Notes: generated by a model from the letters alone, not told the origin. A DNA stretch of 34,634 nucleotides from Candidatus Woesearchaeota archaeon B3_Woes (GCA_005222965.1 NJBG01000001.1:861533-896166), one strand, 5' to 3'; positions 2,451 to 34,634 are shown, numbered from the stretch's first letter. Program-made: numbers and translations.

Positions 2451-3600
2451 TATTATTGTTTTCCCAAGCCTCTTTAACAGCTTTAGATACTTTAGGAACA
2501 ATTTCCTTATTAGTAGCATAAGGCAATATTTCATCTGGTGTTGGATTTTCAATAACAGAAGCCAATGCTTTTGCAGCAGCTAACTTCATATCTTCAGTTA
2601 TCCTCTTAGCTCTTGCATCTAAAGCTCCTCTAAAAACTCCTGGAAATCCTAAAACATTATTAACCTGGTTTGGAAAATCACTTCTTCCAGTTGCAATAAC
2701 CTTTGCTCCTGCCTCTTTTGCATCATCAGGCATTATCTCTGGGTCAGGATTTGCCATTGCCATAACAATAGAATCTTTTGCCATTGAAGAAACCATCTCT
2801 TTACTAACCAAACCCTTAACAGAAACACCAATAAAAACATCAGATCCTTTAATTGCATCTGCTAAAGAACCTTTTATTTTTTCTTTATTTGTTAATAAAG
2901 CAATTTCTTCTTTATGTTTGTTTAAATCCCCTCTTTCTTCATATAAAATTCCTTTAGAATCACACAAAATAATATTAGTAGCACCATAATTCAATAACAT
3001 CTTAGCTACTGCAATTCCAGCAGCACCAGCACCACTAAAAACAATCTTAACTTCTTCAATTTTCTTATTAACAACTTTCAAAGCATTAATCAATCCAGCC
3101 AAAGAAACAATTGCTGTTCCATGCTGATCATCATGCATAACTGGAATTCCTAAATTCTGTAATTGAGCTTCAATTTCAAAACATTCAGGAGCTTTGAAAT
3201 CCTCTAGATTAATTCCCCCAAAAACAGGAGCAATATTTCTTATTGTCTCTATATTCTTCTGAACATCTTGTGATTCTAAACAAATAGGAAAAGCATCAAT
3301 ATTTCCAAACTCCTTGAATAAAATTGCTTTACCTTCCATAACAGGCAAAGCAGCCTCTGCACCTATATTTCCTAATCCCAAAACAGCACTTCCATCAGAA
3401 ATAACAGCAACAGAATTTCCTTTAAATGTATATTTGTAAACATCCTCTTTGTTTTTAGCAATATATCTACATGGCTCAGCAACACCAGGCGTATAAGCCA
3501 AAGACATATCTTTCTTATTCTTTAAAGGTAATTTAGATTTAATCTCTAATTTGCCTTTTAGTCTCTCATGTATTTCCAAAGATTCTTCTTGTATATTCAT
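2446..3600 (-). CDS. mae: NAD(P)-dependent malic enzyme (minimal, unfused)
   Basis: LAYTPGVAEPC, DGSAVLGLGNIG, LPVMEGKA, GGINLED, HDDQHGTAIV, GAGAAG, ANPDPEI, TGRSDFPNQVNNVLGFPG. Confidence 0.96.
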   Translation of the reverse strand: MNIQEESLEIHERLKGKLEIKSKLPLKNKKDMSLAYTPGVAEPCRYIAKNKEDVYKYTFKGNSVAVISDGSAVLGLGNIGAEAALPVMEGKAILFKEFGNIDAFPICLESQDVQKNIETIRNIAPVFGGINLEDFKAPECFEIEAQLQNLGIPVMHDDQHGTAIVSLAGLINALKVVNKKIEEVKIVFSGAGAAGIAVAKMLLNYGATNIILCDSKGILYEERGDLNKHKEEIALLTNKEKIKGSLADAIKGSDVFIGVSVKGLVSKEMVSSMAKDSIVMAMANPDPEIMPDDAKEAGAKVIATGRSDFPNQVNNVLGFPGVFRGALDARAKRITEDMKLAAAKALASVIENPTPDEILPYATNKEIVPKVSKAVKEAWENNNI

Positions 3601-4541
3601 TTTAGTGTTGTTATAGGTCTAGATTGAAGAATATAAATCTTATCATCTATAGCCCATTCAATATCCTGTGGATGTTTATAGTGTTGTTCAATCTTTAAAC
3701 CAATTTTAGTTAATTCTTTTAATTCTTTTTCAGATAAAACCCTTTCAGTAGGATTTTCAATAGATCTTTTTTCAACACCACCCTCTTTTTTCATAAATAT
3801 TCCCATTGATTTGTTGCTAATATTCTTTTCTTTTAGCTTTTCTGTGTTCTTATCAATTAAATAATAATCAGGAGTTACTTGCCCTGATACAACAGATTCT
3901 CCTAATCCAAATGATCCTTCAATTATGATTTCTTCTTTTGAATTTGTAACAACATTTGCAGTAAACAAAACCCCTGCCTTTTTACTGTCAACCATCTTTT
4001 GTACAACTACTGCAATCAAAACTTCATCATGCTTGAATTTATTAATATCTCTGTAATAAATTGCTCTTGAAGTAAATAATGATGCCCAGCATTTTTGTAC
4101 AGAATTAAGCAAATCTTCTTCTTTAACACTAAGATAAGTATCTTGCTGGCCTGCAAAAGAAGCTTCTGGTAAATCCTCTGCTGTTGCAGATGACCTAACA
4201 GCTACGAAACCTCTTAGATTTTTGTAATTTTCCATAATATCTTTTTTAATATCTTCAGGCATGTCTTCTACCATTATTATTGATCTTATTTCTTCAGAAG
4301 CCTTGTCCAGTTTTTCAGTATCTTCAATATCAACAATATCTAAAATATCCATAATTTTCTTTTTAATTGATTCTAAGAACTTCTCAAAAGCATAAGCACT
4401 AACCACAAATCCATCTGGAATTGGTGTAATACTAAATAATTCACCTAAAGAAGCTCCTTTTCCACCTACTAAAGGAATATCAGTTATAGAAACATCCTTA
4501 AACCATAAAATGTTTTTTTTATCAAAAGTCCCTTCTTCCAT
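3597..4541 (-). CDS. Stand-alone PEP synthase/dikinase N-terminal ATP-grasp domain protein
   Basis: VGGKGASLGEL, AVRSSATAEDLPEASFAGQQDTYL, CWASLF, GLGESVVSG, PQDIEWA. Ends exactly at the domain boundary (ILQSRPITTLK*) with an ATGA overlap into malic enzyme. No His domain and no pyruvate domain. Confidence 0.93.
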   Translation of the reverse strand: MEEGTFDKKNILWFKDVSITDIPLVGGKGASLGELFSITPIPDGFVVSAYAFEKFLESIKKKIMDILDIVDIEDTEKLDKASEEIRSIIMVEDMPEDIKKDIMENYKNLRGFVAVRSSATAEDLPEASFAGQQDTYLSVKEEDLLNSVQKCWASLFTSRAIYYRDINKFKHDEVLIAVVVQKMVDSKKAGVLFTANVVTNSKEEIIIEGSFGLGESVVSGQVTPDYYLIDKNTEKLKEKNISNKSMGIFMKKEGGVEKRSIENPTERVLSEKELKELTKIGLKIEQHYKHPQDIEWAIDDKIYILQSRPITTLK

Positions 4542-4560
4542 TCATTTGAGAAGATTTTAA

Positions 4561-5847
4561 TCATTTATTAATCTTTCTCACAATCCCTTTGTTTGCATCA
4601 ACTTCTACAAGATCATTATCTTTGAAAAACCCAGTTGCGTTATTTGCACCAACAATACAAGGAATCTTAAATTCTCTTGCGAAAATTGCTGTGTGACATA
4701 ACATACCTCCAATCTCAACAACCATTGCTTTTGTTTTACGCAGATAAGGTTCATACTGAACTAATGTTTCTGCTGCAACTAATATATTACCCTCTTTAAT
4801 TTTCTTGATATCTTCAAAACCCTTTACTACTTTAACTCTTCCTTTAACAATCCCAGGACAAGCAGGTCTCCCTTTTACAATATCTTTTTGCTCTTTTACT
4901 AATATAAACTCCCTTTTATATCTTTCAAACTCTTTTATAGTAAGATGCCTTATAACACCATCTTCTTTTATAACTCCTCTATGAGTAAATCTTGAATCTA
5001 AATTTTTTGGTATTTTTTTAGAAATCAAAGCATCATCCAATTCAAATGGTAAAAACACATCCCAATATTTTTCAGCTACTTTTATCCTTCTAAATATTTC
5101 AGAATAAAGGGGAAACATCCAATAAAAAGCATAATTATAAGCATCAATACGCTCAAATCTGAACCACATCAACTTTTGCATCTCTTTTACATACTCATTC
5201 TTACTGACTTTTATGATGATGGTTTTCTTAGCACTTTTCTTAATCTCTTTTAAATCATCTATAGTTAAGGGCTGGCCTCTTGTAAGATTCATATTATACC
5301 AAGCATACTCTTTTTCTAATTCTTTTATACTTTTTTTACTTTCTAATAAATCATCATTCATTCTTCCTGCAGAAACTCTTCGTATCGGTCTAATCTCATC
5401 AAATTTAATGTTTGGCACCTTTTTAATAATATCTTCTTCAACAATATCCCCAACAAAAAGTAGTGGAAAAAGAAAAGGAATACACACCCTTACTTTCTCT
5501 TCAAATTTCTCTTTTTCTTTTAATAATTCTTCATCACTAAGGTTTTTAAAATCATCATTTTTATGTTTATCAGCATACTGTTTTAAATCATTCATTCTTT
5601 TTAAACATTTTTTATTAAATTTTTTTAAGAATTTTTGAGGATTTTTTTTAATAAAATTCCCATATTTTTTATTATCTTTAACAGGGAAAAAAGACACATC
5701 ATTTACTGTAATCAAATCTCTTGATTCATAATCTAACCCCATGGCTTTTTTATGATATTCTTTATCTTCTCCTCTAAAATAAAGCCCATTAAAATATTCT
5801 CCATTAGGCCAACAGCCTTTTTTAATAAAATCTTTTGGATTAAACAT
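4561..5847 (-). CDS. Phospho-His swivel-domain protein, paralog 1
   Basis: C-terminal GGMLCHTAIFAREFKIPCIVG...LVEVDANKG, preceded by a divergent N-terminal region. Confidence 0.9.
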   Translation of the reverse strand: MFNPKDFIKKGCWPNGEYFNGLYFRGEDKEYHKKAMGLDYESRDLITVNDVSFFPVKDNKKYGNFIKKNPQKFLKKFNKKCLKRMNDLKQYADKHKNDDFKNLSDEELLKEKEKFEEKVRVCIPFLFPLLFVGDIVEEDIIKKVPNIKFDEIRPIRRVSAGRMNDDLLESKKSIKELEKEYAWYNMNLTRGQPLTIDDLKEIKKSAKKTIIIKVSKNEYVKEMQKLMWFRFERIDAYNYAFYWMFPLYSEIFRRIKVAEKYWDVFLPFELDDALISKKIPKNLDSRFTHRGVIKEDGVIRHLTIKEFERYKREFILVKEQKDIVKGRPACPGIVKGRVKVVKGFEDIKKIKEGNILVAAETLVQYEPYLRKTKAMVVEIGGMLCHTAIFAREFKIPCIVGANNATGFFKDNDLVEVDANKGIVRKINK

Positions 5848-7294
5848 TTTTTATAACCATAACAACTCCTTTATTTGCATCAACTTCAACATAATCTCCA
5901 TCTTTCAGAATTTTTGTAGCATTATCTGCACCAACAATACACGGAATCTTAAATTCCCTTGAAATTACTGCTGCATGTGAACAAATTCCACCTTCTACAG
6001 TAACAATTGCTCCTGCCTTCTCTATAATTGGCACCATTATTGGAGAGGTCATTGTTGTAACTAAAATTTCTCCTTTTTTAAATTTCTTAGTATCTTTAAT
6101 AAATTGCTTTAAATCTCTAACATTAACAATCTTGACTTTTCCTTTAACTTTTCCCATATTAGCAACTGTTCCTTTTATTTCTTTGTCTAGTTCTTCTTCA
6201 TCAAATTTAAGAAGTTTTTCTATGTATTTTTGCCCTTCTTCTCCTGAATAACGATACAACTTTCCATTAATGTTATGAAATATAAGACATTTCTTATGAT
6301 CTTCAATCTGTTTCTTAGTAAGTTTAGTTTTATTATCCAACAAATTATATATATCTTTGAAAGTATAAACTTTCATGAATTCTTTTAAATCCATATCAAC
6401 TCTTTTAGCCAAATCTTCTAATAAATGTAAACACATATATTCAGCTCCATTCCAAACATGCTTAAGCCTATATCTATCAAGAGCTACTCTTTGTAATCGC
6501 CTTGCTAATTGTTCAAGTTCATCACTCTTAAACAAATTATATATCTCTTGATGTTTTTTAGAAATTGAATCAAGATTCTCTTTTATTCTTCTTATTTCCA
6601 AATCTATTTCTTTATCACTTTTTTTATCTTCTATTTTATTTTTTAGAAATTCCATAATCTCTTTAAAATCATAAGTATTAACAAATAACGCAGGGTATTT
6701 TCTTGAGTATTCTATTAAATCTACTTCTGAATACTTTCTTTTCATTAATTCTAAGAAATCAATCCTCTCTTTCATTGTTTCATCCATCTCTTCTGGAGTC
6801 ATTAATGATATGAAAAAATCTTCCAAAATAGATTTGTCTTTGATCTTTTTTCTAAGAATCTCCTTTATCCTTTCTTCTATTGTATGGGTTGAAAATGAAG
6901 ATGAAACTGCAAAATATAAAAGACCCAATCTAACAAAGTTTTCATATTTCTTTACTATCTGTTTCAATTTAAGATTAGATAATTTAGATAGGTCCTTTTC
7001 CCTTATCCCCTCACAAAATATAAAAAAATTCTTTACATGACAATCTATCTGTTTGAATACCATTTGAGAAAATTCTTTATTTATGTATTTTTTACCTAAT
7101 CCTTCTAAACCTTTGATAGCATCTTCTGGCATATGATGTTCAAATACTCCATCATGTATTATAAACAAGGTTTCACTAACCTCAGAAGGAATCTCATTGC
7201 CATTTTCGCCTATAGTACTACATAATTGAGAAAGCATAGATTCAGTAAGCATGACAGATAATTTTCCTCCCCACATAAAAATATACTTTTTCAT
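5840..7294 (-). CDS. Phospho-His swivel-domain protein, paralog 2
   Basis: GGICSHAAVISREFKIPCIVG...VEVDANKG. 8-nt overlap with paralog 1. Confidence 0.9.
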   Translation of the reverse strand: MKKYIFMWGGKLSVMLTESMLSQLCSTIGENGNEIPSEVSETLFIIHDGVFEHHMPEDAIKGLEGLGKKYINKEFSQMVFKQIDCHVKNFFIFCEGIREKDLSKLSNLKLKQIVKKYENFVRLGLLYFAVSSSFSTHTIEERIKEILRKKIKDKSILEDFFISLMTPEEMDETMKERIDFLELMKRKYSEVDLIEYSRKYPALFVNTYDFKEIMEFLKNKIEDKKSDKEIDLEIRRIKENLDSISKKHQEIYNLFKSDELEQLARRLQRVALDRYRLKHVWNGAEYMCLHLLEDLAKRVDMDLKEFMKVYTFKDIYNLLDNKTKLTKKQIEDHKKCLIFHNINGKLYRYSGEEGQKYIEKLLKFDEEELDKEIKGTVANMGKVKGKVKIVNVRDLKQFIKDTKKFKKGEILVTTMTSPIMVPIIEKAGAIVTVEGGICSHAAVISREFKIPCIVGADNATKILKDGDYVEVDANKGVVMVIKNV

Positions 7295-7297
7295 TAA

Positions 7298-7326
7298 TAT
7301 AACTAGTTATAACATTCTTATATAAA
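7298..7326 (-). promoter_or_regulatory. Putative TATA box (7319-7326) and 14-bp palindrome (7298-7311) ahead of the paralog 2/paralog 1/ATP-grasp/malic enzyme run
   Basis: TTTATATA about 25 nt upstream of the ATG at 7294 (leaderless spacing). Perfect palindrome TATAACTAGTTATA lies between them. Confidence 0.55.
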
Positions 7327-7352
7327 TATTTTGAAAAAATAAAAAAATAGAA

Positions 7353-7970
7353 TTAAACTCCTAAAAGCTCATTAATTTTTTGAGGAACTTTCACTACTAT
7401 TTCTTCTATACTTCCTTGATATGCTTCTTTGCTTAATCCAAACGCATTAGAAATACCAAGAGGTTCAATAACCTTGGGTCTATACTCAGATTCACCATAG
7501 ATTCTATCAACTGCTTGATGATTAGAGTCAGCCATTGGGTATACTCCTAATGTATCAGGTCTTGCTATTGTTTGATCTTGTGTTTGTTTAATTTCTCCTT
7601 TTATACCTAACAAAGGTAAAATTTCAGAACGATATTGGTGTTCTTCTCTTACAAAAATACCTGAAGCTCTCTCATAAAAACCTTTTAAAGTATCTAACGC
7701 ACCTTTATCTACATCAGCTATAACATCACTAAGCAACTCATTTTCATCATAAGAATACATGCCTCTATCTTGTGCTATACCAATAACATGAAGCATAAAA
7801 TCAGTTGAAACCTCCCCTCTATTGATTGCATCTACATGAGAACCGCTTGATATGGCGTTATATTCATCTGCACCAATCTGTTTTAAATAATTACTAGCTA
7901 TAAGAGCTGCAACAGGTGATCTACCATGATTTGCAGTACATACAAACTCTATTTTATTTTGTTCTACCAT
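7353..7970 (-). CDS. Low-molecular-weight protein-tyrosine-phosphatase/ArsC-fold protein
   Basis: N-terminal P-loop FVCTANHGRSPVA (CX5RS), then SSG. GAGGT SD upstream. Confidence 0.8.
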   Translation of the reverse strand: MVEQNKIEFVCTANHGRSPVAALIASNYLKQIGADEYNAISSGSHVDAINRGEVSTDFMLHVIGIAQDRGMYSYDENELLSDVIADVDKGALDTLKGFYERASGIFVREEHQYRSEILPLLGIKGEIKQTQDQTIARPDTLGVYPMADSNHQAVDRIYGESEYRPKVIEPLGISNAFGLSKEAYQGSIEEIVVKVPQKINELLGV

Positions 7971-7980
7971 TTTTACCTCT

Positions 7981-8781
7981 TTATGCAGCTATTTTATAAG
8001 CAATATCTTTTTCAATTCTTCTTAAATCACTTAAATTATAACCTTTAACTTCTTCTTTAACATTAAGGTCCATTGATGGGTTTTCTGAATCTAAATTATA
8101 AATATTTCCTGTAAACATCTCGCCCATTCTTACAGCCTTATAATCATCATCAACTTCTACAATCTCTTTTATTGGATCAATCCCTAAACATTCTAAGGCT
8201 ATCATTGCTAAACCATCTATATTAGGCGCATGAGTAAAATGTGCTAATAAACTCTGTTCATGGCCTCTGTTTTGTTGAAGATATTCTATTCCATCAGCTA
8301 TTGATTTTATAAACTGACGTGTCCATTCACCCATAAATGGCAATCCTTCTTCTTGAGGTTTAAAAAAATGATCTCTATAAAGGTTTCTTACAAATTCATC
8401 TTGATTCACTTCATAATGCGGAATAATTTTTTGGTGATTCATATTTGCTCCATCATATCCCATCCCAATCTCTTTTCTTTGATCAATCTCTCTACCATTC
8501 AATAAATTAGCATCTTCTGTAAAATATAAAGCAGATTGTAATGCCCTTATATAATCAGAAGTCATAAATAAGGCACTATCAAATGGAGTATCTCCTAGAA
8601 CCTCTCTACCTTTTTCTCTTAATTCTTGTGCACCCTCTGGTGTTATGTATATAAAAGCTTTATCTTCAGGACTAGCTGGAGATGGTCTTGGAATGCCTCC
8701 CTCTCCTATATTTAAACCATGTTGTCCACTAAACTTTTTTCCATGCCTTGACACTATAATTTTTCCATCTTGTGAATCCAT
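7981..8781 (-). CDS. Histidine phosphatase superfamily protein
   Basis: SRHG motif near the N-terminus, TSDYIRALQSA, and a second His in FTHAPNI. Confidence 0.8.
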   Translation of the reverse strand: MDSQDGKIIVSRHGKKFSGQHGLNIGEGGIPRPSPASPEDKAFIYITPEGAQELREKGREVLGDTPFDSALFMTSDYIRALQSALYFTEDANLLNGREIDQRKEIGMGYDGANMNHQKIIPHYEVNQDEFVRNLYRDHFFKPQEEGLPFMGEWTRQFIKSIADGIEYLQQNRGHEQSLLAHFTHAPNIDGLAMIALECLGIDPIKEIVEVDDDYKAVRMGEMFTGNIYNLDSENPSMDLNVKEEVKGYNLSDLRRIEKDIAYKIAA

Positions 8782-8858: not shown

Positions 8859-10226
8859 CTAGTTAATCTTCTTAACAACACCTTTATCAGCATCAACCTC
8901 TACTAAATCATTATCTTTTAAAACATTTGTAGCAACTTTTGTGCCTATCACACAAGGAATGTTATATTCTCTACTAACAATTGCAGCATGACTTGTAATA
9001 CCGCCTTCATCTGTAATAACTGCTGCTGATATTATCATCTTTGGTGTAAAGTTTGGAAAAGTATACTTAGCAACAAATATATCCCCTTTTTTTATCTTTT
9101 TCAAATGATCAGAATGAGTTATTATTTTTACCCTTCCTTTTACTTTTCCTTTACACGCAGTCATACCTTCTAATGTTGTAATATTCTTTAGTTCTCCTTG
9201 AAGTCTGTCAAGTGTTTTATTAATTTCCCTCATATCATACATCATATCAACCATTCCTTTTTGAAAATAATATAATGCCTTGTTTGCACCCCTCAATTTT
9301 AACTCTTTTTTATCAGGGAATTTTCCCTTTTCCAAAACCCCCTTGGTTTCTTTCATTGTCAGATTTGTTACATCTTTTAGTGTTAATCCTTTTTCTAATG
9401 TAGTTAAATACCTAAAAAAACCTTTTAGATGGAATGTTGCTCTTTTCCATACATCAATACGTTCTGTTTTCATAAAAGCATAAGTATGAACAATTTCTGT
9501 TTTTAATCTCAATTTTTTATCTTTAATAGATTTCAAAAACTCTGAAAATTCTTTTTTAACTTCTTTGAATCTCTTGAATTGCTCTTCAATCTCTTCTTTA
9601 CTTATATTCTTTCTTTGACGCTCAAAGTATTCTTCTGTATACTCCTTATCATAACCACTATATATCTTAAGCCAACCCCACTTCTTTACAAGCTCTTTTG
9701 GAGAAAGTCTATGCAAGGCTCTTTGCATATTAATAAAGTCAATTGGTTTATCAAGCGCCATTACTAATTCTATTTTATCAGGAAAATTTTTCAGAACATC
9801 TTTTTCAGTAAAATGAATAACGGCCCACGCACTCCAAATATATTCACTATAATCACAAGATTCATCAACATAATCTAAGTAGTTCTTAAGAATTATTTTT
9901 TTATTATTTGTTTTTGTTGATTTAGATAATTTAATTGCTTTTTGAATTAATCTTTTTTTCCTTTTATCATAACTTAAAAAGTGTTTTTTCCAGTTCTTTT
10001 CCATATATCTTGCAAGTCTGGAAAGAGTCTCAAGTGATGATTTTTCCTCAATATAATAATCATAGATATTCTTATTTGGCATATCTATAAATCCTTTACA
10101 ACCACGATTAACCAACCACCAAATCCATGGTTCATCTCTTGAAATACACGTTTCTCTAGCAGCAAATCTAAAATAAGGGCTTTTTATTGCAATTTTTTTA
10201 ACATTATTAATTTTATATGGTTTCAT
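8859..10226 (-). CDS. Phospho-His swivel-domain protein, paralog 3
   Basis: TDEGGITSHAAIVSREYNIPCVIGTK...LVEVDADKG. Confidence 0.9.
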   Translation of the reverse strand: MKPYKINNVKKIAIKSPYFRFAARETCISRDEPWIWWLVNRGCKGFIDMPNKNIYDYYIEEKSSLETLSRLARYMEKNWKKHFLSYDKRKKRLIQKAIKLSKSTKTNNKKIILKNYLDYVDESCDYSEYIWSAWAVIHFTEKDVLKNFPDKIELVMALDKPIDFINMQRALHRLSPKELVKKWGWLKIYSGYDKEYTEEYFERQRKNISKEEIEEQFKRFKEVKKEFSEFLKSIKDKKLRLKTEIVHTYAFMKTERIDVWKRATFHLKGFFRYLTTLEKGLTLKDVTNLTMKETKGVLEKGKFPDKKELKLRGANKALYYFQKGMVDMMYDMREINKTLDRLQGELKNITTLEGMTACKGKVKGRVKIITHSDHLKKIKKGDIFVAKYTFPNFTPKMIISAAVITDEGGITSHAAIVSREYNIPCVIGTKVATNVLKDNDLVEVDADKGVVKKIN

Positions 10227-11680: not shown

Positions 11681-11729
11681 CTTATTTTTCTTACAACACC
11701 TTATTAGCATCTACTTCTACTAAATCATC
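11677..11729 (-). pseudogene. 3'-end remnant of a lost 13th swivel-domain paralog
   Basis: Reads GAT GAT TTA GTA GAA GTA GAT GCT AAT AAG (G)GT GTT GTA AGA AAA ATA AGA TGA = DDLVEVDANK-G-VVRKIR* with a 1-nt deletion. 11706-11727 is identical to 30487-30508 and 31911-31932. Confidence 0.85.
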
Positions 11730-25600: not shown

Positions 25601-26449
25601 TTATTTCTTAACTTTAAGAAAATAGATAGGGAGAATGTCAGAATGATGAACTTTTTTGATCCTATTTGTATCTTTAATCAGAAAATAATCTTTTATCTTA
25701 CTCTTAAAATGTTTTTCTGATGACATGTAGCTTATCATGCTTTTTGCATGTGTAACTATATTTATGAAATCGGCTTTAGCCTTTCCACTTAACATTTTCC
25801 CAACAGGTTCTTCAACTTCAGCTAAAAAACTCCAATCAAATACTTTTGTTTTTTGATTATATTGTCTTTTTGCAAATTTAGTATACATACCAAACTTAAG
25901 AACCAATCCAAGAATAGTGCATTTTTTCCGCTTAAATTCTTTCACAAATTCTTCACATGATCTAATCTTTTTAAGAGGATAATCATAAATTATATGTCTT
26001 GTTATCAAATATCCATCTTTTTTCAGTAAACGATTAACAATTCTAAAAAGATCTCTCCATTTTTTAACAGGAACATTATTAAATGAAGCATCTCCCATAA
26101 CAACATCAAAGGAATTTAATTCTAGAGATTTATGCATCTCTAACCAATTACCAAGAACAGATACATTCTTCTTACTATCTTTATAATGCATAACATTCGT
26201 TAATAATGAGAGAAGTTTAGGACTACTATCAACACCAATTGTTTCAGAACCATGTTTTATTGCCAAATCTCTTAATTCAGGTGTTGCTCCTAAAACCAAT
26301 GTTCTAGTGTTTTTCTTATTTCCTATAGCAATCTTAAAGAATTTTTCATAAACTTTAATCTCTTCAGGAGATGGAGCAGAGGTTCCTTCCCCTCTTTTAG
26401 CTCTAGTTTTAATTATCTTTATATTTGACCATGTATTTCTAACTTTCAT
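25601..26449 (-). CDS. Class I SAM-dependent methyltransferase-like, paralog E
   Basis: LVLGATPELRD, GVD, GNW, FDVVMGDASF, LLKKDGYL. ATGA-coupled to paralog 7. Confidence 0.8.
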   Translation of the reverse strand: MKVRNTWSNIKIIKTRAKRGEGTSAPSPEEIKVYEKFFKIAIGNKKNTRTLVLGATPELRDLAIKHGSETIGVDSSPKLLSLLTNVMHYKDSKKNVSVLGNWLEMHKSLELNSFDVVMGDASFNNVPVKKWRDLFRIVNRLLKKDGYLITRHIIYDYPLKKIRSCEEFVKEFKRKKCTILGLVLKFGMYTKFAKRQYNQKTKVFDWSFLAEVEEPVGKMLSGKAKADFINIVTHAKSMISYMSSEKHFKSKIKDYFLIKDTNRIKKVHHSDILPIYFLKVKK

Positions 26450-27945: not shown

Positions 27946-28976
27946 TTTAACTTTCTTACAATACCTTTATTTGCATCAACTTCAATTAAATCGCCGTCTT
28001 TTAAAACCTTTGTTGCAATCTTTGTACCTATGATACATGGTTTTTTCATCTCTCTGGAAATTATCGCTGCATGGGTTGTTTGTCCTCCTTCATTGGTTAC
28101 AATTGCCGAACATCTTCCAAGTATTGGAACATATAACACATTAGTCATGGATGCTACTATGACATCTCCTTTTTTGACCTTTGAAAAATCTTCTTTTGTC
28201 AACACTATCTTTGCTTCTCCTTTCGCAAATCCTTTGTTTGCAATAGTCCCTTTTAACTCTTTTGCCTCTGAATATGATTCTTCTTCAAATATCTCTTTCA
28301 TCTTTGCAAGCGCTTCATCACCTAACAGATATTTCTTTGTTTTCAAAGTGTAGAAATGGGCTTGATGTCTTTTCTTGACAATATCCATGTCTATTTCTTT
28401 ACACTGCAACAGATTTTTTATTTCTTCTAGAGACATTGATTCTACTAGTTCTTCTTTCAGATATTTTTTGAATTCTTTTGACAAGAACTCCCATAAGTCC
28501 ACCCAGTAAGATTTACTCTTGTATTTTGTGATGGTGCTTTTATAGTCTGGATGGTGATCTAGGAATTCATCATCCAATGAATAGCCAATAAATGCACATG
28601 ATATATAATACTTCCAGTATTCAGGCAAAATTTTCTGGATTTTCTCTATTATCGCAATAAGCTCTATTTTATTTGTTGGTTTGCTGCGTATTATACTACT
28701 TATTTGTTTGTCAGATTTTCCCACAATCTTGAACAGCGCCAAATATTTTGAAGGATTATTCCTAACTTTTTTCTTGACATTTTTTTTCAACAGATCAAAC
28801 TCTTCTTTGTTTCTGTAAAGTTCATTCACATTCTTTTTTGTGAAAAAGAATTTATCATCTATATCTTCTCCTAATAGTTCCATTAAGTTGGAGTATCCTA
28901 CTTCAATGCATTTATCATATACATAAAAAGCTATTTCTCTTGAGATATATTCATAATCATTTAGTTTTCTTTTCAT
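27942..28976 (-). CDS. Phospho-His swivel-domain protein, paralog 8 (short form)
   Basis: TNEGGQTTHAAIISREMKKPCIIGTK. 344 aa. Confidence 0.88.
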   Translation of the reverse strand: MKRKLNDYEYISREIAFYVYDKCIEVGYSNLMELLGEDIDDKFFFTKKNVNELYRNKEEFDLLKKNVKKKVRNNPSKYLALFKIVGKSDKQISSIIRSKPTNKIELIAIIEKIQKILPEYWKYYISCAFIGYSLDDEFLDHHPDYKSTITKYKSKSYWVDLWEFLSKEFKKYLKEELVESMSLEEIKNLLQCKEIDMDIVKKRHQAHFYTLKTKKYLLGDEALAKMKEIFEEESYSEAKELKGTIANKGFAKGEAKIVLTKEDFSKVKKGDVIVASMTNVLYVPILGRCSAIVTNEGGQTTHAAIISREMKKPCIIGTKIATKVLKDGDLIEVDANKGIVRKLK

Positions 28977-30460
28977 TTAATCTTCCTCACAATACCATGG
29001 TTAGCATTTACTTCAATTAAATCGCCATCTTTTAAAATTTTTGTGGCTATTTTAGTACCAATTACACATGGGATTCCTAATTCACGAGAAACAATAGCTG
29101 CATGACTAGTAATCCCACCTTCATCTGTTACAATAGCAACAGCCTTTTTCATAGCAGGAACACACTCAGGTCTTGTCATTGTTACAACCAACACCTCTCC
29201 TTTTTGAAATTTAGCCAAATCATCTTTTGTTTTACAAATCCTTACTATACCACTAACTTTGCCAGTAGATGCACACATTCCATGGATATCAGATTGAGCA
29301 GCTAAACTTTTATGATAACAATCCATAAACTTCTTAAAATCATCTTTTATATAGAATTCAGAAACTAATTTACCATCTTTCCTCTTCATATAAACTGCAT
29401 AATGTTTTATCCTTTCTTTACTCTCTTCCATATTAAAATTAGTTAACATTTTATAATCAATTTCATCAGGAGAATATCTTTTTAGAATATCTAAGGGAAT
29501 ATCAAACTTTTCACTAATCTCTTTCAATAATATATGCATGTAGTAAACACAACTCAACATATTCTTTTTCCTGTCATCCTGCCAATGAAGAACTTTTATC
29601 GAAAGATCAATCAAATCTATAATTTTACTATCAAAATTAAATTTTTGAATCAATTCTTTTCTTTTATTAATATTATTCTTATACCTTTGATTTTCCTCTT
29701 TTATCTGCTTATCAACATCAATATTATCTTTAATCATATTTTTTATTTCTTTTAGGTAATCTTCTTCTCTTAAACCATCACCATCAAAATAATTTAATTG
29801 GTTATAGAAATATTCCTTTCTATGAAATGATATTAATCCTAAAACATCTTCACCATTTTCCATCATCTTTATAATTTTCATTAAATCCAGATGTTCTTCA
29901 TTCATAAAAGAAGGTCGTTCAGGTTGTAATAAATCATTAAAAATTTCCCTGAATTTCTTATCATGCCTGTTAAGATTTAGTGATTTTTCCAACATTTCTT
30001 TTAACAAAGGCTCAACAACAAAAGGTATTGCTTCTACTAAATGACTCACACTTAGAAGTCTGTGGTAGGTTCCCCAAAATTTCTTATAAATATTAAGTAA
30101 ATCTTTATTATTAAGATTTTTAATATCTCCTTCATCTATCTCTAACATAATTTTTTGAGAATCTTTTACAAAAACATCATCTTTTTTTAATAAATCCTTT
30201 AAATAATTCTTATCTTTTTCATATCTCTTAAGAAAATTATTTCCAACATCTACTAAATCCTGTTCAAGATAACAATATTCTAAATAATCTTTGTTAAAAA
30301 TAAATAATTTTTCAGTATACCCATAACCAAGAACTTTGTGACAATCAACCATCGATGATACAGGACCATGAAAAATATAATTTAGACAGCTGTTAAATCC
30401 CTGTACATACCATTTCTTTTTAGCAATTTCCTGAAACCTTTTAGATAAATCTTCTTTCAT
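28973..30460 (-). CDS. Phospho-His swivel-domain protein, paralog 9
   Basis: TDEGGITSHAAIVSRELGIPCVIGTK. Confidence 0.9.
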   Translation of the reverse strand: MKEDLSKRFQEIAKKKWYVQGFNSCLNYIFHGPVSSMVDCHKVLGYGYTEKLFIFNKDYLEYCYLEQDLVDVGNNFLKRYEKDKNYLKDLLKKDDVFVKDSQKIMLEIDEGDIKNLNNKDLLNIYKKFWGTYHRLLSVSHLVEAIPFVVEPLLKEMLEKSLNLNRHDKKFREIFNDLLQPERPSFMNEEHLDLMKIIKMMENGEDVLGLISFHRKEYFYNQLNYFDGDGLREEDYLKEIKNMIKDNIDVDKQIKEENQRYKNNINKRKELIQKFNFDSKIIDLIDLSIKVLHWQDDRKKNMLSCVYYMHILLKEISEKFDIPLDILKRYSPDEIDYKMLTNFNMEESKERIKHYAVYMKRKDGKLVSEFYIKDDFKKFMDCYHKSLAAQSDIHGMCASTGKVSGIVRICKTKDDLAKFQKGEVLVVTMTRPECVPAMKKAVAIVTDEGGITSHAAIVSRELGIPCVIGTKIATKILKDGDLIEVNANHGIVRKIK

Positions 30461-31884
30461 TCTATCTTCCTAACAATACCATGATCAGCATCTACTTCTA
30501 CTAAATCACCATCCTTTAAAACCTTTGTAGCTACTTGAGTTCCAATAATACAAGGCTTACCTAACTCTCTAGAAACAATTGCAGCATGACTAGTAATCCC
30601 CCCTTCATTTGTGATTATAGCTGCTGCTTTTTTCATAATAGGAACAAATTCAGGTCTAGTCATATATGATACAAGTATATCTCCTTCTTCCATTTTTGAA
30701 AACTCATCTTGTTTCATAATAATCTTTACTCTTCCCTTAACAATTCCTTTATTTGCAATCTGCCCTTTTAGTTCTTTAAACTCCTGTTTAATCCTATCAT
30801 CATAAACCTTTTTTATTTCTTCAGCTTCATCACCATAAAAATATGCAGGATCATCTTTTCTGGAAAACAATGCACTTACCTTATGACCAATCTTTTTTAA
30901 TTCTTCCTCAGATATTGTAAATAATTTATCAGATTTGTTTATGAAAGGCAATTGTTCATAAAGTCTCCAATCAATATTCTTTCTTCTTGCTATTTCTTCT
31001 ACAAACCATCTTAATATAGCATCCCCTTTACAGTTTATTCTCTTCCTTACATCTCTCCTATGACCCAATGAAGACATTAACTTAAAGAATTTCAACACGT
31101 TTTTGGGCATATCATGATTTTCATAGATTTCTCTTTTCTTATTTGAAAGGTCTGAAAGCTTTTTTTCTATCTCTTTAAGATTCTTTTCAGGATCTTTTAT
31201 TTTTTCAAGTTTTTCTTTAAAATGCGATACGGGTTGTGTGTCTGCATGACCATAATTGTTCTTATACCAAAAAAATTTCTTTTGATGCCTCTCAAGACCT
31301 TCTTCAGAAAAATTGATTTTAAGCTTTAATAAAGATATTTCTTCTTCCTGTGCAAAAGAAGGAACATCAGGCATTAAAAGAGTCTTCACTTCATCATCTG
31401 TAAGCTTATTATTATACTCTTCATTTAGAAGATGGTTTATTATTTCCTCCCAATAAAGATCAAAAGAATCTATAAATATAAATGGTTTCCACGCTTCATC
31501 AAAACAATCGCAGAACTCTTCAAATACTTTTTTTAGTTCATCATCTGATAGAGATTTCAAATCAGGAAGACTATCAATAGCTTTATCAAGGTCTTTTTCA
31601 AGTTTATCATGGAGCTTTTCAAGTTTGTCTAAGAAAGAATCATCACTATTATTTTTATCTAAAATATATTTATACATCTTTTCAAGAGCGCCTTTATCCA
31701 AACCCATACAAAAATTGCCATCCTCTTCTATGATAATTAAATGTTCATATCCTTTTTCATGCATACTGAGGACACTTCTAACTGCTGTATATACAGGAAA
31801 AGAAATGTAAAATGGTTTTCCCTCTCCTCCCTGATCATACCATTCAGTTTCTTGAATTATTTTTTTAAAATCTTCTTTATTCAT
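30457..31884 (-). CDS. Phospho-His swivel-domain protein, paralog 10
   Basis: TNEGGITSHAAIVSRELGKPCIIGT. Confidence 0.9.
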   Translation of the reverse strand: MNKEDFKKIIQETEWYDQGGEGKPFYISFPVYTAVRSVLSMHEKGYEHLIIIEEDGNFCMGLDKGALEKMYKYILDKNNSDDSFLDKLEKLHDKLEKDLDKAIDSLPDLKSLSDDELKKVFEEFCDCFDEAWKPFIFIDSFDLYWEEIINHLLNEEYNNKLTDDEVKTLLMPDVPSFAQEEEISLLKLKINFSEEGLERHQKKFFWYKNNYGHADTQPVSHFKEKLEKIKDPEKNLKEIEKKLSDLSNKKREIYENHDMPKNVLKFFKLMSSLGHRRDVRKRINCKGDAILRWFVEEIARRKNIDWRLYEQLPFINKSDKLFTISEEELKKIGHKVSALFSRKDDPAYFYGDEAEEIKKVYDDRIKQEFKELKGQIANKGIVKGRVKIIMKQDEFSKMEEGDILVSYMTRPEFVPIMKKAAAIITNEGGITSHAAIVSRELGKPCIIGTQVATKVLKDGDLVEVDADHGIVRKIE

Positions 31885-33362
31885 TTTAACTTCCTAACAA
31901 CACCTTTCTCAGCATCTACTTCTACTAAATCACCATCTTTTAAAACTTTCAGAGCAATATTTGTACCAGTAACACAAGGTTTTCCTAACTCCCTTGAAAC
32001 AATAGCAGCATGGGATGTAATTCCACCATCGCTTGTAACAATTGCTGCTGCCTTTTTCATTAATCCAACATATTCTGGTCTTGTCATACCAGTAACTAAT
32101 ACATCTCCTTTTTTAAATTTTGAGAATTCTTCAACTGTATTCACAATTCTGACTTTACCAGTAGCTTTACCAGGAGAAGCACAAACACCCTTTATCTCAG
32201 AAATTTTATCAGGATCCTTCAAGCTCACAACTTTATCAAAATAATATTTTACTTTTTCTCCGTATATAGCCTCTAATTTATTCAAAGTATGAATAAGCAG
32301 AAAAGGTTTTTTTCTCTTTTCAACTTCAATAAGAAATTTTTCCTTATCTTTAACAAATTCTTCAACCTCTTTTATATCAAATAACATAATATCTTTAACA
32401 TCTAATTCATATCTTCTAGAAAACTCTTTTGCAAATCTTGTTTCATAATAAATAAACTTCAGAGCATTCTCTTTCCTTAATTCCTGCCAATAAGAAACAA
32501 ATACACTTAAATCTGATAAAGACCTTATTGTATTACTAAATCTATATTTATCCAATAACTCTTTCCTTATTTTTTTATTCTCTTTAGATAATTGTCTTTT
32601 CTTTTTCTCTAATTCATCTAAATCTTCTTTTAATAATTCTTTTATACCCTCAATCACCATACCAACAGAGTATCTATAACCATACCCCCAGTTCCCTTTA
32701 GCATAAAAATATTTATTAATATGCTTCTTAACAATATCTAATCTAACAAACTCTTCAGGATTATCTAATAAATCACTTCCTTTTATTTTTTTAGCTATAT
32801 CTATAAGCTCAATCTCAAAAAAATTCAAAAAAGAAGCCTTTTCAGGAGAAGTCAATGTAGAATATATTTTAGAAACATCTTTAATCTTTTCTTTTTTACA
32901 ATAATCTTCTAATTCTTTAATCATTCTCCTCTCTGAACTAAACATGATAGGGTCCATCATCATAGAAATTCGTCTTGATCTAATCAACTGTTGCCATATC
33001 CTATTGTGTTTATCCCATAATTCTTCTTCTGTTAATGATTTTAGATCAATTTTCATTAATTCATTAAACATTTGCTGATATTTAGCAGATTCCTTTTCAA
33101 ATTCAGAAAACCATCTATCAAACTCTTCTTTATTATTCATATAAACAGATAATATCTCTTCAAATAATCTATCCTGATCCTCAACTAAAGTGCACCACTT
33201 TGTTTCCCCATTTTTGTAAAAGTTTAATACAAACTTATATTGGTTTTTTAAAAAAGTAATTCCATCTGCCATGGCATGTGCAGCAAGACATATAAGCAAA
33301 GGACTAGCTTCTGCATGTTCTTCATACCACCCCTTATCAAAATTCTCTTCAATTAAACTCAT
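31881..33362 (-). CDS. Phospho-His swivel-domain protein, paralog 11
   Basis: TSDGGITSHAAIVSRELGKPCVTGT. Confidence 0.9.
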   Translation of the reverse strand: MSLIEENFDKGWYEEHAEASPLLICLAAHAMADGITFLKNQYKFVLNFYKNGETKWCTLVEDQDRLFEEILSVYMNNKEEFDRWFSEFEKESAKYQQMFNELMKIDLKSLTEEELWDKHNRIWQQLIRSRRISMMMDPIMFSSERRMIKELEDYCKKEKIKDVSKIYSTLTSPEKASFLNFFEIELIDIAKKIKGSDLLDNPEEFVRLDIVKKHINKYFYAKGNWGYGYRYSVGMVIEGIKELLKEDLDELEKKKRQLSKENKKIRKELLDKYRFSNTIRSLSDLSVFVSYWQELRKENALKFIYYETRFAKEFSRRYELDVKDIMLFDIKEVEEFVKDKEKFLIEVEKRKKPFLLIHTLNKLEAIYGEKVKYYFDKVVSLKDPDKISEIKGVCASPGKATGKVRIVNTVEEFSKFKKGDVLVTGMTRPEYVGLMKKAAAIVTSDGGITSHAAIVSRELGKPCVTGTNIALKVLKDGDLVEVDAEKGVVRKLK

Positions 33363-34634
33363 TTTATTTTCCTAACAACTCCTTCATCAGTGTCTACTTC
33401 TATTAATTCACCATTCTTTAATGCTTTTGTGGCAATTTTTGTGCCAACAATACAAGGAATTCCTAATTCCCTAGAAACAATAGCAGCATGTGAAGTCATA
33501 CCACCTTCATCTGTTATTATTGCTGAAGCCTTTCTCATAGCAATAACATAATCAGGAGAAGTCATTGGCGCAACTAATATTTCACCTTTCTCCATTCTAT
33601 CAATATGTTTAGGACTAAGAAGAATTCTTACCTTTCCTTTAACAACATTCTGTTTACCTTTACTAACAACCAACCCTTTAAACTCTTTTAAATTTTTATC
33701 AACATGAACCTCAAGATAAGGTTTAACAAGATCATTTGCTTTTTTACCAGCTAAATAATCTACATTTTTATTTTCATTATAATACATCATAAAACCTTTA
33801 TAACGTGATTTAGCATCTATCCTCTTATCATTTTCTAACAATTCAATAATTTCATAACCGCAATAATAACAAATTTCTTTAAATGAAATCTTTTTCCTTT
33901 TAGAAATCTCTTTCATAAAACAACTTATAATATGATTAGCTATAAAGATAAACTGCTTTCTAAAATCCTGCCACCAGACACAATAAGCAAGCTTTTTTGC
34001 TATATGAACAGTTTCATCATTAACATTATATTTTTTGATAATGGCTTTTTTCTTTTGTAATATTTTATCAACATAATTATTGATTTCATTAATTTTATTC
34101 TTAGCATCCTGCTTTGAAATTTTATCAAGCTCTTTCTTAAAGAAATTAACATCCAAAACCTTTGTAAAACCATAACTATTTCTTAACCAATAATATTTTT
34201 GCTGATGTTCTTTTAATTTCTCTTTATTATCTGATAATTTTATCTTCATAAATGCTAATTCTTCAGTCTGAAAAAAAGAAAGATTTTCAGGAGCACTAAG
34301 AGCTTCAAAAATTTCAATAAAATTAAACTTATCAAAATCTAATATCTTATTTTTTAATAATCTCTCTCCTCCCCAGTTGCTTAGCTCAGGCAGAATTCCA
34401 GTTAACCAAAAATTAAGATGCCCTTTTTCCCATTCAACAAAAAGATTTCTTAATTCACTATAGCTTAAATCAGAAAGACCTTTATTAACCCTAGCTTCAA
34501 ATTCTCTAAACTTATCTACACTAACCATCCAATCATCAAAAGCTTTTCTAAGAATTTTATCATCCAGAACATGTTTAACAAATAGTTTTTCTCCACTATC
34601 TCTTAGCTTTTCATAGTCTGCAATAAAAACAACC
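33359..34634 (-). CDS. Phospho-His swivel-domain protein, paralog 12 (5'-truncated by the window)
   Basis: TDEGGMTSHAAIVSRELGIPCIVGTK. The frame stays open past the Met at 34528 to the window edge (VVFIADYEKLRDSGEKLFVKHVLDDKILRKAFDDW-MVSV). Confidence 0.9.
   Translation of the reverse strand, partial: VVFIADYEKLRDSGEKLFVKHVLDDKILRKAFDDWMVSVDKFREFEARVNKGLSDLSYSELRNLFVEWEKGHLNFWLTGILPELSNWGGERLLKNKILDFDKFNFIEIFEALSAPENLSFFQTEELAFMKIKLSDNKEKLKEHQQKYYWLRNSYGFTKVLDVNFFKKELDKISKQDAKNKINEINNYVDKILQKKKAIIKKYNVNDETVHIAKKLAYCVWWQDFRKQFIFIANHIISCFMKEISKRKKISFKEICYYCGYEIIELLENDKRIDAKSRYKGFMMYYNENKNVDYLAGKKANDLVKPYLEVHVDKNLKEFKGLVVSKGKQNVVKGKVRILLSPKHIDRMEKGEILVAPMTSPDYVIAMRKASAIITDEGGMTSHAAIVSRELGIPCIVGTKIATKALKNGELIEVDTDEGVVRKIK

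Follow-up and report, generated by a model that had tools for sequence, protein, structure and literature searches.

The accessible sections of PMC12167813 describe HpeHI, CreHI and PpsAB as two-component RPH-like dikinases, in which the ATP-grasp subunit is split from a subunit with the acceptor domain and the swivel. Each has one ATP and one acceptor subunit, acts on phenolics and comes from free-living bacteria. According to the same sections, HpeH and HpeI do not associate stably, and HpeH alone moves phosphate between substrates. RPH consists of one chain and has one acceptor domain, in which the R666-E667 pair is essential for the second phosphotransfer by mutagenesis (PMC4844700, in its accessible part). 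PigC, RedH and HapC are also single chains with one substrate domain; there the phospho-His activates the substrate (PMC13534948, in its accessible part). In PEP synthase and PPDK the swivel is central and is followed by the PEP/pyruvate TIM barrel.

The window, that is, the whole analysed stretch of 34.6 kb from a contig of about 1.0 Mb of Candidatus Woesearchaeota archaeon B3_Woes, contains the same parts in another proportion. A Pfam scan of its 30 ORFs of at least 170 aa finds the C-terminal PEP-utilizers domain PF00391 in 12 ORFs (E 7e-21 to 2e-28), all on the minus strand (Table 1), and so many matches at such E-values within 34.6 kb exclude chance. No Pfam match occurs in the approximately 270-420 residues before PF00391 in any of the 12. 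A single ORF of the 30 carries PPDK_N only; it encodes the ATP-grasp protein G and lies at the downstream end of the array, 19 bp after the last paralog. The pyruvate-binding barrel, PF02896 (PEP-utilizers_C), is absent from all 30 ORFs. These counts refer to the window, and the genome may have another PPDK_N gene or a PEP-barrel gene outside it. Thus the first-pass annotation was right in reporting co-oriented paralogs with a catalytic His, one free ATP-grasp gene and no barrel. Seven paralog-paralog junctions are overlaps of 4-8 bp, which fits co-transcription. Since the last frame is open at the window end, the paralogs number at least 12. With an internal ATG as start, paralog 12 would have 389 aa.

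Table 1. Coordinates of the array genes and their companions, counted from the first letter of the window
Feature	Coordinates	Strand	Length	Remarks
ATP-grasp (PPDK_N-only) subunit G	3597..4541	-	314 aa	PF01326 E 1e-102, profile positions 2-312 of 328
Paralog 1	4561..5847	-	428 aa	predicted divergent helical N-region + His swivel; PF00391 residues 350-421, E 7e-21
Paralog 2	5840..7294	-	484 aa	N-region + His swivel; PF00391 E 7e-25; N-region HMM E 2e-99 (sequence itself in HMM)
LMWPc-like gene inside array	7353-7970	-		weak Pfam match, 23.1 vs cut-off 23.2 bits
His_Phos_1-like gene inside array	7981-8781	-		weak Pfam match, 19.5 vs cut-off 21.7 bits
Paralog 3	8859..10226	-	455 aa	PF00391 E 9e-24; N-region HMM match
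Paralog 4	10223..11710	-	495 aa	PF00391 E 2e-24; N-region HMM match
Phosphate acyltransferase (PTA_PTB)	11728..12711	-		PF01515 E 4.5e-84; embedded in array
Paralog 5	12724..14175	-	483 aa	PF00391 E 8e-27
Companion block, three genes	16392..19280	-		homologues in same order, adjoining PTA, e.g. L034 6101-9998
Protein with DIDDT motif	16392-17180	-	262 aa	homologues in 8/69 loci; motif by eye, lead only
Protein with GHSSG motif	17177-18232	-	351 aa	homologues in 8/69 loci; motif by eye, lead only
Double hexapeptide acyltransferase	18183-19280	-		homologues in 13/69 loci; Pfam Hexapep
Paralog 6	19317..20759	-	480 aa	PF00391 E 9e-26; motif GGVTSHSS
Paralog 7	26446..27945	-	499 aa	predicted RPH-like substrate-domain fold + swivel; best-characterised unit
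Paralog 8	27942..28976	-	344 aa	short; PF00391 E 2e-21
Paralog 9	28973..30460	-	495 aa	PF00391 E 9e-26
Paralog 10	30457..31884	-	475 aa	PF00391 E 1.5e-26
Paralog 11	31881..33362	-	493 aa	PF00391 E 1.3e-24
Paralog 12	33359..34633	-	at least 424 aa	frame open at window end; PF00391 E 2e-28

In the alignment of the 12 paralogs G380, G381, H385, R391 and E392 (paralog-1 numbering) are invariant, and the catalytic His sits near the C-terminus of each in the motif GGxT[S/C]H...RE. Identity to the first paralog is 21-27% over the whole length. The N-regions had been called highly divergent; the divergence is there (16-27% identity to paralog 7), yet the regions share the motifs P..SF..EE.DLL, H.KKY.W..NY and D.RK, and one HMM built from their columns recovers 12/12 paralogs. 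Judged from the sequences, they are clearly homologous to one another. Paralog 8 lacks about 130 N-terminal residues present in the others and is the only paralog with its best match inside the window. Paralog 5 is 52% identical over 482 aa to its best outside match, compared with 37% to the best one within the window. Orthologues of paralog 7 occur in DPANN archaea and CPR bacteria at 40-90% identity, those of paralog 9 in three loci (L027, L034 and L048) at about 50%, and one of paralog 12 in L037 at 64%. These comparisons identify the paralogs as ancient orthogroups conserved in archaea and bacteria, not a fast-evolving library; the set is common to DPANN and CPR, with exchange between them. 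The N-region profile collects 5,674 cluster representatives at E <=0.001, of which 938 reach E <=1e-30.

The proportion seen in the window recurs in a census of 69 related DPANN and CPR loci (fetched stretches). The median number of swivel genes per locus is 5, with at least two units in 51 loci, at least five in 36 and at least eight in 11, and of 290 swivel ORFs 288 share a single strand. Exactly one G-only gene occurs in each of 22 loci and none in the other 47; no locus has two. In 15 of the 22 this gene comes downstream of every unit, as it does in the window; in five it is upstream, and in two within the array. Hence, the count of PPDK_N-only versus swivel-only genes that the first-pass annotation had proposed comes out in its favour, and the one-to-many ratio is not a local accident. 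G, free or fused, was not found within the fetched stretch in 45 of the 69 loci. Nine or ten of these 45 contain lone or paired swivel genes with a free flank of at least 4-6 kb on both sides, so linkage to G is not obligatory.

Natural fusions repeat the ratio within single chains. A single ORF of 3312 aa (L030) comprises one PPDK_N and seven swivel domains, and another fusion (L046) one PPDK_N and two swivels. Among 15 long proteins of the family, eight combine a single PPDK_N with 2-6 swivels, and none has two PPDK_N. The 837-aa protein P0064 joins a relative of G (43% identical) to a relative of paralog 7 (58%, full length) in the order G, acceptor domain, swivel, which mirrors the domain order of RPH. 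Of the initial idea that one ATP subunit serves many specificity subunits, the ratio is thus borne out by loci and fusions, whereas the recently diversified, interchangeable library gives way to old orthogroups. Detoxification, scavenging and host interaction, the roles offered at first, are conjectural.

Other fusion partners and neighbours are for the most part metabolic enzymes. In P0244 a PTA is fused between swivel units, and PTA homologues are recurrent companions inside arrays (13/69 loci). In L006 a unit is fused to a cytidylyl/adenylyltransferase-like domain, and the paralog-7 orthologues of L012 and L014 have such a domain encoded directly upstream. Enzymes of this class act on X-phosphates, and the fusion and its neighbouring counterparts hint at small-molecule acceptors. 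Within the three-gene companion block Hexapep is the only Pfam match. The LMWPc-like and His_Phos_1-like genes have no NCBIfam match, and it is uncertain whether these two phosphatase-like genes (7353..8781) belong to the dikinase system.

We suggest that the array is a hub-and-spoke form of a two-component RPH-type small-molecule dikinase, a reading that we regard as fairly probable, in which phosphorylation in trans, an AMP + Pi stoichiometry and the nature of the acceptors are inferred. ATP would be bound by the single protein G. Each of the at least 12 paralogs would, by homology, possess its own phospho-carrier His on the swivel and its own helical acceptor domain with an RPH-like fold. 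The swivel of any paralog would dock transiently on G, where its His would attack the ATP beta-phosphate; the gamma-phosphate would be lost as Pi and AMP released. The phospho-His swivel would then return to its own N-domain and phosphorylate the acceptor bound in it. This transfer is modelled on the mechanism established for RPH (PMC4844700) and for PpsAB and HpeHI (PMC12167813), as far as the accessible sections describe it. Different paralogs would serve different acceptors, most likely small molecules, and the phosphorylated products may feed nucleotidyltransferases, the phosphate acyltransferase, acyltransferases and HAD phosphatases.

The subunit G itself raises another possibility. D293, E295, Q306, R308, K28 and R116 are invariant across 22 G-only proteins. 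Its best PDB sequence match is PEP synthase (8a8e, 2e-84), to whose N-termini it is nearer than to the ATP-grasp part of RPH (5hv6, 2.5e-65) or to the 387-aa chain 9goj (1e-53). NCBIfam ranks the families in the same way: PEP synthase 378 bits (cut-off 598), RPH NF041857 294 (cut-off 999) and PigC 240 (cut-off 1300). The stop of G overlaps the start of a malic enzyme gene by 4 bp, and malic enzyme makes pyruvate. G could then be the ATP-binding part of a PEP synthase split in two, with the swivel and pyruvate-barrel half encoded elsewhere and the 12 paralogs independent of G. The paralogs would take phosphate from another donor, or shuttle it between substrates as HpeH alone can (PMC12167813, accessible sections), and lone swivel genes without G within about 10 kb suit this arrangement. 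However, besides the absence of PF02896 from the window, the PEP-barrel probe across the 69 loci finds only two complete opposite-strand PEPS/PPDK genes (L066 and L011) and never a swivel and barrel half, and malic enzyme adjoins G in none of these loci. In addition, G is on the same strand as the swivel arrays in 22 loci and is fused to 2-7 N-region and swivel units in many proteins, as well as to a paralog-7 orthologue. We consider the split PEP synthase unlikely.

The hub-and-spoke dikinase predicts an acceptor domain in each paralog, and here the structural comparison points to RPH. The predicted model of paralog 7 (pLDDT 93.3, pTM 0.89) has RPH-Lm as its best six PDB matches (E 2.5e-13 to 8e-12; 5FBS, 5FBT, 5FBU and 5HV1 among the structures), with a TM-score on the query (TMq) of 0.39-0.57 over about 560 aligned columns. 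The match extends over the whole length, so the suggested check of the N-region fold against RPH turned out positive for this paralog. The other PDB matches of this model cover the swivel only (TMq ~0.2), and no PigC-type structure is among them. Paralog 1, the most divergent, gives a poor model (pLDDT 66.9), whose RPH matches at TMq 0.24-0.26 are no better than swivel-only ones. The N-region profile alone retrieves no RPH from the PDB by sequence, its best match being a spurious 67-aa chain at E 0.0015; in this respect the N-regions have no sequence-level match to any solved relative. The C-terminal ~110 aa, i.e. the swivel, are closest in sequence to PEP synthase/PPDK (8a8e, 2.3e-46).

In an HMM alignment Q-D-E-R-K (300-304) of paralog 7 is placed, in a stretch of low posterior confidence, on R666-E667-Y-P-K670 of RPH. 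At the same low confidence E667 is matched by D301 and K670 by R303, but R666 by Q300, i.e. the R666/E667/K670 motif appears partly kept. The corresponding acid-x-base-K motif is found in 8/12 paralogs in the alignment, with paralogs 1-4 deviating. From the one confident model and this low-confidence motif alignment we suggest that the acceptor domain is homologous in fold to the RPH rifampin-binding domain; for the other 11 paralogs the RPH-like fold is assigned through the homology of their N-regions to paralog 7.

Docking of G with paralog 7, the paralog used for this check, yields a median ipSAE of 0.36 (runs 0.36, 0.23 and 0.48) against 0.00 for the best of three controls, with a partner pLDDT of 85 and at least 75% of contacts agreeing between runs. 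In the benchmark the docking mark is reached by 116/157 solved complexes and 2/215 mismatched pairs, but the pairs that reach it at <=0.60 comprise only 18 of the 157 complexes along with both mismatches. The pass may also mirror likeness to RPH, since RPH was solved as one chain with both parts. The docking thus lends weak support to the predicted pairing of G and paralog 7.

Carrier proteins with ligand-binding domains might alternatively be sensors or phospho-relay regulators, which G would charge, the ligand in the N-domain gating phosphorylation and thereby the control of targets. CPR orthologues of paralog 7 with an N-terminal XRE-type HTH (P0085-P0118; L008, HTH_3 E 1e-15), a response-regulator receiver domain in one multi-unit protein (P0252) and TrmB-family regulators beside the arrays of six loci are in line with such a role. 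In the window, however, the Pfam scan finds a DNA-binding or output domain in 0/12 paralogs, and eight of them keep the motif tentatively aligned to the catalytic Arg-Glu...Lys of RPH. Metabolic enzymes (cytidylyltransferase-like, PTA, HAD and acyltransferases) predominate among fusion partners and neighbours, and the characterised relatives in the accessible sections of PMC4844700 and PMC12167813 are all enzymes. A sensory function appears quite improbable.

It is quite unlikely, too, that the units act like PigC, RedH and HapC, phospho-activating ligases in which a substrate oxygen is activated, a second substrate condenses and phosphate leaves: PigC and RedH share the architecture of G, helical domain and swivel, PigC is the only NCBIfam match of paralog 7 well beyond the swivel (residues 260-497, profile 633-881, E 1.2e-19), and acyltransferases, an acyl-CoA ligase and methyltransferases accompany the array as in natural-product clusters, but the PigC score of paralog 7 is 69.7 bits against a cut-off of 1300, its structural matches are RPH, and cluster contents vary between the 69 loci with no conserved biosynthetic core beyond PTA, acyltransferase and HAD.

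Identity with described enzymes was also considered. RPH is rejected, as the window genes are split and NF041857 scores lie far under the cut-off of 999 (294 bits for G, 62 for paralog 7); there is no sign of rifamycin as a substrate for the window proteins. PEP synthase/PPDK, whose ATP-grasp and swivel come nearest in sequence to G and the paralog C-termini, differs in that the window swivel is C-terminal behind a predicted helical domain, the genes are split and PF02896 is found in 0/30 ORFs; it is rejected on this absence and on 378 bits against 598. PigC/RedH is rejected on scores far below the cut-off (240 and 69.7 bits for G and paralog 7) and because the window has no pig/red genes. The hub-and-spoke dikinase instead corresponds in its parts to PpsAB, CreHI and HpeHI as described in the accessible sections of PMC12167813: a stand-alone ATP-grasp subunit, an acceptor domain (its fold here taken from the paralog 7 model) with a C-terminal His swivel, the His in GGxT[S/C]H, no PEP barrel, and two subunits expected to associate only transiently. 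The likeness to phenylphosphate synthase drawn at first thus applies. The split form is already published there; what is new is the one-to-many form, with one G and at least 12 acceptor subunits in an archaeon. Full-text literature searches found no description of such an arrangement, in agreement with the initial statement.

The metabolism of ultra-small DPANN and CPR organisms is minimal, and for most gene families specific to their lineages no role is known. The N-region family is large, with its genes set in long arrays and conserved in both archaea and bacteria. We tentatively propose that DPANN and CPR share a large hub-and-spoke phosphorylation system, in which one ATP-grasp hub charges at least 12 phospho-His carriers with their own acceptor pockets. 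It would occupy about 2% of a 1 Mb genome and may do the work of many conventional kinases by trapping scavenged metabolites or activating them, and the giant fusions of up to seven units would be its single-chain form. Candidates would be, for example, compounds that lead to NDP-activated head groups, acyl phosphates from which CoA esters are made, or cofactors.

In the PTS, Enzyme I and HPr feed many Enzyme II proteins. If true, the proposed system would represent a new way of organising kinases, with PTS-like logic but driven by ATP, and would provide candidate enzymes that spend two phosphoanhydride bonds to phosphorylate poor nucleophiles. The fusions and companions (PTA, LbH acyltransferase, HAD and nucleotidyltransferase) are starting points toward the substrates, and the system would offer a testable handle on how these symbionts capture and activate metabolites.

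The window has a G+C content of about 30% and from 2.4 to 34.6 kb is nearly full of minus-strand genes. The Pfam scan took in 30 ORFs, each of at least 170 aa. Twelve of them (paralogs 1–12) carry the C-terminal PEP-utilizers mobile (swivel) domain (PF00391, E-values 7e-21 to 2e-28), and no residue of the GG...H...RE motif varies among the 12, so that the catalytic His is kept throughout, as the first-pass annotation had stated. PPDK_N ATP-grasp (PF01326) is the sole domain of a single ORF, G (314 aa, E = 1e-102), and the PEP-utilizers_C barrel is found in 0 of the 30 ORFs. The G gene follows the last paralog downstream after a gap of 19 bp, and its stop and the malic enzyme start overlap. Thus, exactly one free ATP-grasp gene at the downstream end of the array and no pyruvate-binding barrel, both claimed earlier, hold within the window. 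By coordinates, seven paralog–paralog junctions are overlaps of 4–8 bp. Paralog 12 runs past the window end, therefore 12 paralogs is a minimum.

The ~270–420 residues ahead of the swivel (N-region) hold no domain recognisable by Pfam in any of the 12 paralogs. The N-regions had been described as highly divergent. Divergent they are, with 16–27% identity to paralog 7 across the N-regions alone and 21–27% to paralog 1 over the whole length in the alignment of 12, yet they are homologous to one another, as is evidenced by common motifs and mutual HMM detection.

The best PDB match of G is to the N-termini of PEP synthases (8a8e, 2e-84). With the full-length paralog profile, the match to PEP synthase is confined to the swivel, and the alignment with the rifampin phosphotransferase RPH-Lm extends from profile position 179 up to the end (E = 7e-30). 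The N-region profile alone finds neither RPH nor any other meaningful match in the sequence search of the PDB, hence the RPH extension beyond the swivel is non-significant on its own, and the long alignment rests mainly on the swivel. For one paralog the predicted structure settles the matter in favor of an RPH-like fold, as the first-pass annotation had expected. The model of paralog 7, built with 36 orthologues as alignment (pLDDT 93.3, pTM 0.89), has RPH-Lm as all six of its best PDB matches (E-values 2.5e-13 to 8e-12, TM-score on query 0.39–0.57, ~560 aligned columns); all other matches cover the swivel alone with TM-scores on query of ~0.2. The HMM alignment places Q300-D301-E302-R303-K304 of paralog 7 onto R666-E667-Y668-P669-K670 of RPH, where the second phosphotransfer is described to require R666 and E667, with K670 in the same hydrogen-bond network (PMC4844700). 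The acid-x-base-K motif is present in the alignment in paralogs 5–12 and deviant in paralogs 1–4. The model of paralog 1, the most divergent one, is of low confidence (pLDDT 66.9, only the 12 window paralogs as alignment); RPH comes first by E-value, with TM-scores no better than those of swivel-only matches. No NCBIfam model reaches its cut-off for G, paralog 1 or paralog 7.

In RPH, as described, one chain combines ATP-grasp, the rifampin-binding domain and the swivel, and its His shuttles ~49 Å between two active sites (PMC4844700). Dexter et al. 2025 (PMC12167813) reported a two-component form, HpeHI, in which HpeI provides the ATP-grasp and HpeH comprises an RPH-like acceptor domain and the swivel. 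CreHI and PpsAB are homologues; according to that report, the components form no stable complex and HpeH alone can pass the phosphate between substrates. The window genes have exactly the same parts, hence the split form is already known. It is the stoichiometry that differs, with one G and at least 12 acceptor subunits in the window. Full-text searches of openly available main texts and of two DPANN genomics papers gave no description of one-to-many arrays, which agrees with the earlier view of the architecture as undescribed.

Some close relatives of G, ~455–506 aa long, consist of PPDK_N and swivel only, without the helical domain and the barrel; one such protein is encoded on a contig of 102 kb. 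In a further relative of G, HAD is fused to PPDK_N. A PPDK-derived kinase of M. tuberculosis, described in a 2026 paper (PMC13400623), may be comparable.

Close relatives of the paralog 7 N-region number in the hundreds, occur in Nanoarchaeota, Woesearchaeota and Patescibacteria, and bear no more specific names than ‘phosphohistidine swiveling domain-containing protein’ or ‘PEP-utilizing enzyme’. When one genome was scanned for each GTDB species, 69 loci of DPANN archaea and CPR bacteria were obtained, with flanks of up to 10 kb to either side (L034 and L048 cover overlapping parts of the same contig), and the highest identity among the scanned relatives is 68%. The ORFs of these loci were scored with HMMs of the N-region, swivel and G. 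Swivel genes number up to 10 per locus with a median of 5, and 288 of the 290 swivel ORFs are on one strand. At least two N-region+swivel units occur in 51 loci, at least five in 36 and at least eight in 11. Exactly one G-only gene is present in 22 of the 69 loci and two in none, which is in favor of the earlier reading, for which a count in DPANN and CPR had been proposed. In 15 of the 22 loci the G-only gene follows all units downstream, which is also its place in the window; it lies upstream in 5 loci and within the array in 2. The probe for the PEP barrel returned only two complete PEPS/PPDK genes in the 69 loci, both on the opposite strand (L066 and L011). The fetched stretch holds no G in 45 loci, many of whose arrays run off it. 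In 9–10 of these 45, lone or paired swivel genes have a free flank of at least 4–6 kb to either side, hence the linkage to G is frequent, not universal and not obligatory. G-only proteins of ~310 aa are themselves very common, with at least 8,000 candidates in a word-index search; the best 120 of these are mostly PF01326-only and come from Woesearchaeota, Nanoarchaeota and Micrarchaeota.

It is the fusions that most strongly indicate that G would work together with the swivel proteins, one G serving several units. In L030, a Parcubacteria MAG, a single ORF of 3,312 codons (2–9940, plus strand, open at the locus start) encodes one PPDK_N and seven swivels; in L046 (1–3501) one PPDK_N is joined to two swivel domains, and three units are fused in L010 and in L048. 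The N-region profile, searched against a library of 1.84 billion protein representatives, matches 5,674 proteins at E ≤ 0.001 (4,180 at ≤ 1e-10, 938 at ≤ 1e-30). Two or more N-region stretches occur in 36 of the best 150 of the 5,674, a ranking by total score that favours multi-unit proteins. Exactly one PPDK_N with 2–6 swivels is found in 8 of the 15 long members scanned and two PPDK_N in 0 of the 15; PPDK_N is placed N-terminally, C-terminally or internally. In the fused protein P0064 (837 aa), residues 6–323 share 43% identity with G, and residues 336–835 share 58% with paralog 7. Giant single ORFs with one ATP-grasp and several units are also seen in P0243 and P0260 (2,648 aa).

Docking of G with the paralogs, proposed in the first-pass annotation, was done for paralog 7 and gives weak support for a contact. 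The predicted complex has an ipSAE of 0.36 against 0.00 for the best control, with no interface reported, a partner pLDDT of 85 and a contact agreement between runs of at least 75%. Of 157 solved complexes, 116 reach the docking mark, as do 2 of 215 mismatched pairs; only 18 of the 157 solved complexes, and both mismatches, pass at ≤ 0.60. A resemblance to single-chain RPH may lie behind the pass of G with paralog 7, to which we attach little weight, since both parts share one chain in the RPH structures.

Positions of window genes and of related features are collected in the table.

Features of the window and of related loci and proteins
Feature	Position or identifier	Strand	Remark
tRNA, 130 nt	2288–2417	-	Rfam 50.1 bits, full model 1–71; missed by ARAGORN
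Malic enzyme	2446–3600		without the PTA-like C-terminal domain of MaeB-type enzymes
G	3597–4541	-	PPDK_N
PTA_PTB (phosphate acyltransferase, PTA)	11728–12711		separate gene inside the array, 8 kb from malic enzyme
Hexapeptide acyltransferase and AMP-forming acyl-CoA ligase	14292–16384	+	pair interrupting the minus-strand array
Five paralogous SAM-methyltransferase genes around Cys/Met PLP enzyme	20756–26449		one on plus strand; block lies between two parts of the array
Conserved four-gene block inside arrays	window 16392–19280; L034 6101–9998; L041, L037, L067, L005, L010		double LbH acyltransferase, GHSSG-motif protein, DIDDT-motif protein, PTA
PPDK_N-type relatives of G	P0144, P0147, P0153, P0156, P0158, P0168, P0221

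The excess length of the 130-nt tRNA gene suggests an intron-containing, archaeal-type tRNA, which fits the PAC2 proteasome-chaperone gene beside it (1509–2225). Of the NCBIfam NADP-malic enzyme model, the malic enzyme gene matches one half and the PTA gene the other, and the PTA gene scores better as a true phosphotransacetylase. The acyl-CoA ligase falls into the NCBIfam long-chain-fatty-acid--CoA ligase subfamily (485.6 bits, cut-off 476). Among the 69 loci, several methyltransferases together with the Cys/Met PLP enzyme occur only in L002, and methyltransferase homologues alone in L056.

Recurrent non-family genes inside the arrays of the 69 loci are HAD hydrolases (13 loci), PTA_PTB (11–13 loci) and double hexapeptide acyltransferases (10–13 loci); TrmB regulators lie within arrays in 6 loci, and in P0244 PTA is fused between units. 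Homologues of the window genes 17177–18232 and 16392–17180 are found in 8 loci each, in the same order and adjoining PTA. The GHSSG and DIDDT companion proteins have no Pfam or NCBIfam match, and two phosphatase-like window proteins have no NCBIfam match. Lumazine synthase is seen in arrays L018, L027 and L063, an isochorismatase-family hydrolase in L010, L041 and L067, and aspartate/ornithine carbamoyltransferase-like genes in L027, L039 and L053.

A generic cytidylyl/adenylyltransferase-like domain, nearest to RfaE domain II and TagD and below the equivalog cut-offs, is fused to a unit in L006 (8061–9992); such a gene also lies immediately upstream of paralog 7 orthologues in L012 (205–633) and L014 (8020–8430). 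Enzymes of this class use X-phosphates as substrates, thus the context would fit the unit as a kinase making X-phosphate. Paralog 7 orthologues in CPR bear an N-terminal HTH_3 domain (XRE-type; whole proteins ~585 aa; L008 9755–11530, P0085–P0118), which hints at a DNA-binding or regulatory variant and keeps a regulatory reading alive. Thermodynamically, ordinary phosphate esters seem unlikely to drive the reverse reaction, ATP formation from AMP, Pi and X-P. Malic enzyme homologues are present in 0 of the 69 related loci, and a connection of G to pyruvate via the adjoining malic enzyme is therefore rejected.

The first-pass annotation had inferred from the array a library of variable, interchangeable subunits. 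A recent local burst of duplication is rejected, since 11 of the 12 paralogs have better BLASTP matches in the arrays of other genomes than within the window, the exception being the short paralog 8. The best outside matches reach 64% for paralog 12, 63–67% for paralog 7 and 52% for paralog 5, and the best in-window ones 29–37%. The FastTree built from 260 single-unit proteins interleaves archaeal with bacterial labels, which are taken from submitters’ titles and in some cases doubtful; it needs 52 label changes, at least 31 of which are forced by well-supported branches; the 34 rows of the paralog 7 clade include 18 bacterial and 15 archaeal ones. The paralogs are thus ancient, and a freshly variable library is not what the BLASTP matches and the tree point to.

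The reading of G as a shared ATP subunit is supported as a hypothesis by the predicted fold, synteny and fusions: one ATP subunit would serve many N-region+swivel subunits. It is refined in three points: the split form is known, the subunits are ancient and the linkage to G is not universal. Given the better outside matches and the interleaved tree labels, what the array carries are old and conserved specificities that DPANN and CPR have exchanged, rather than a rapidly diversifying library.
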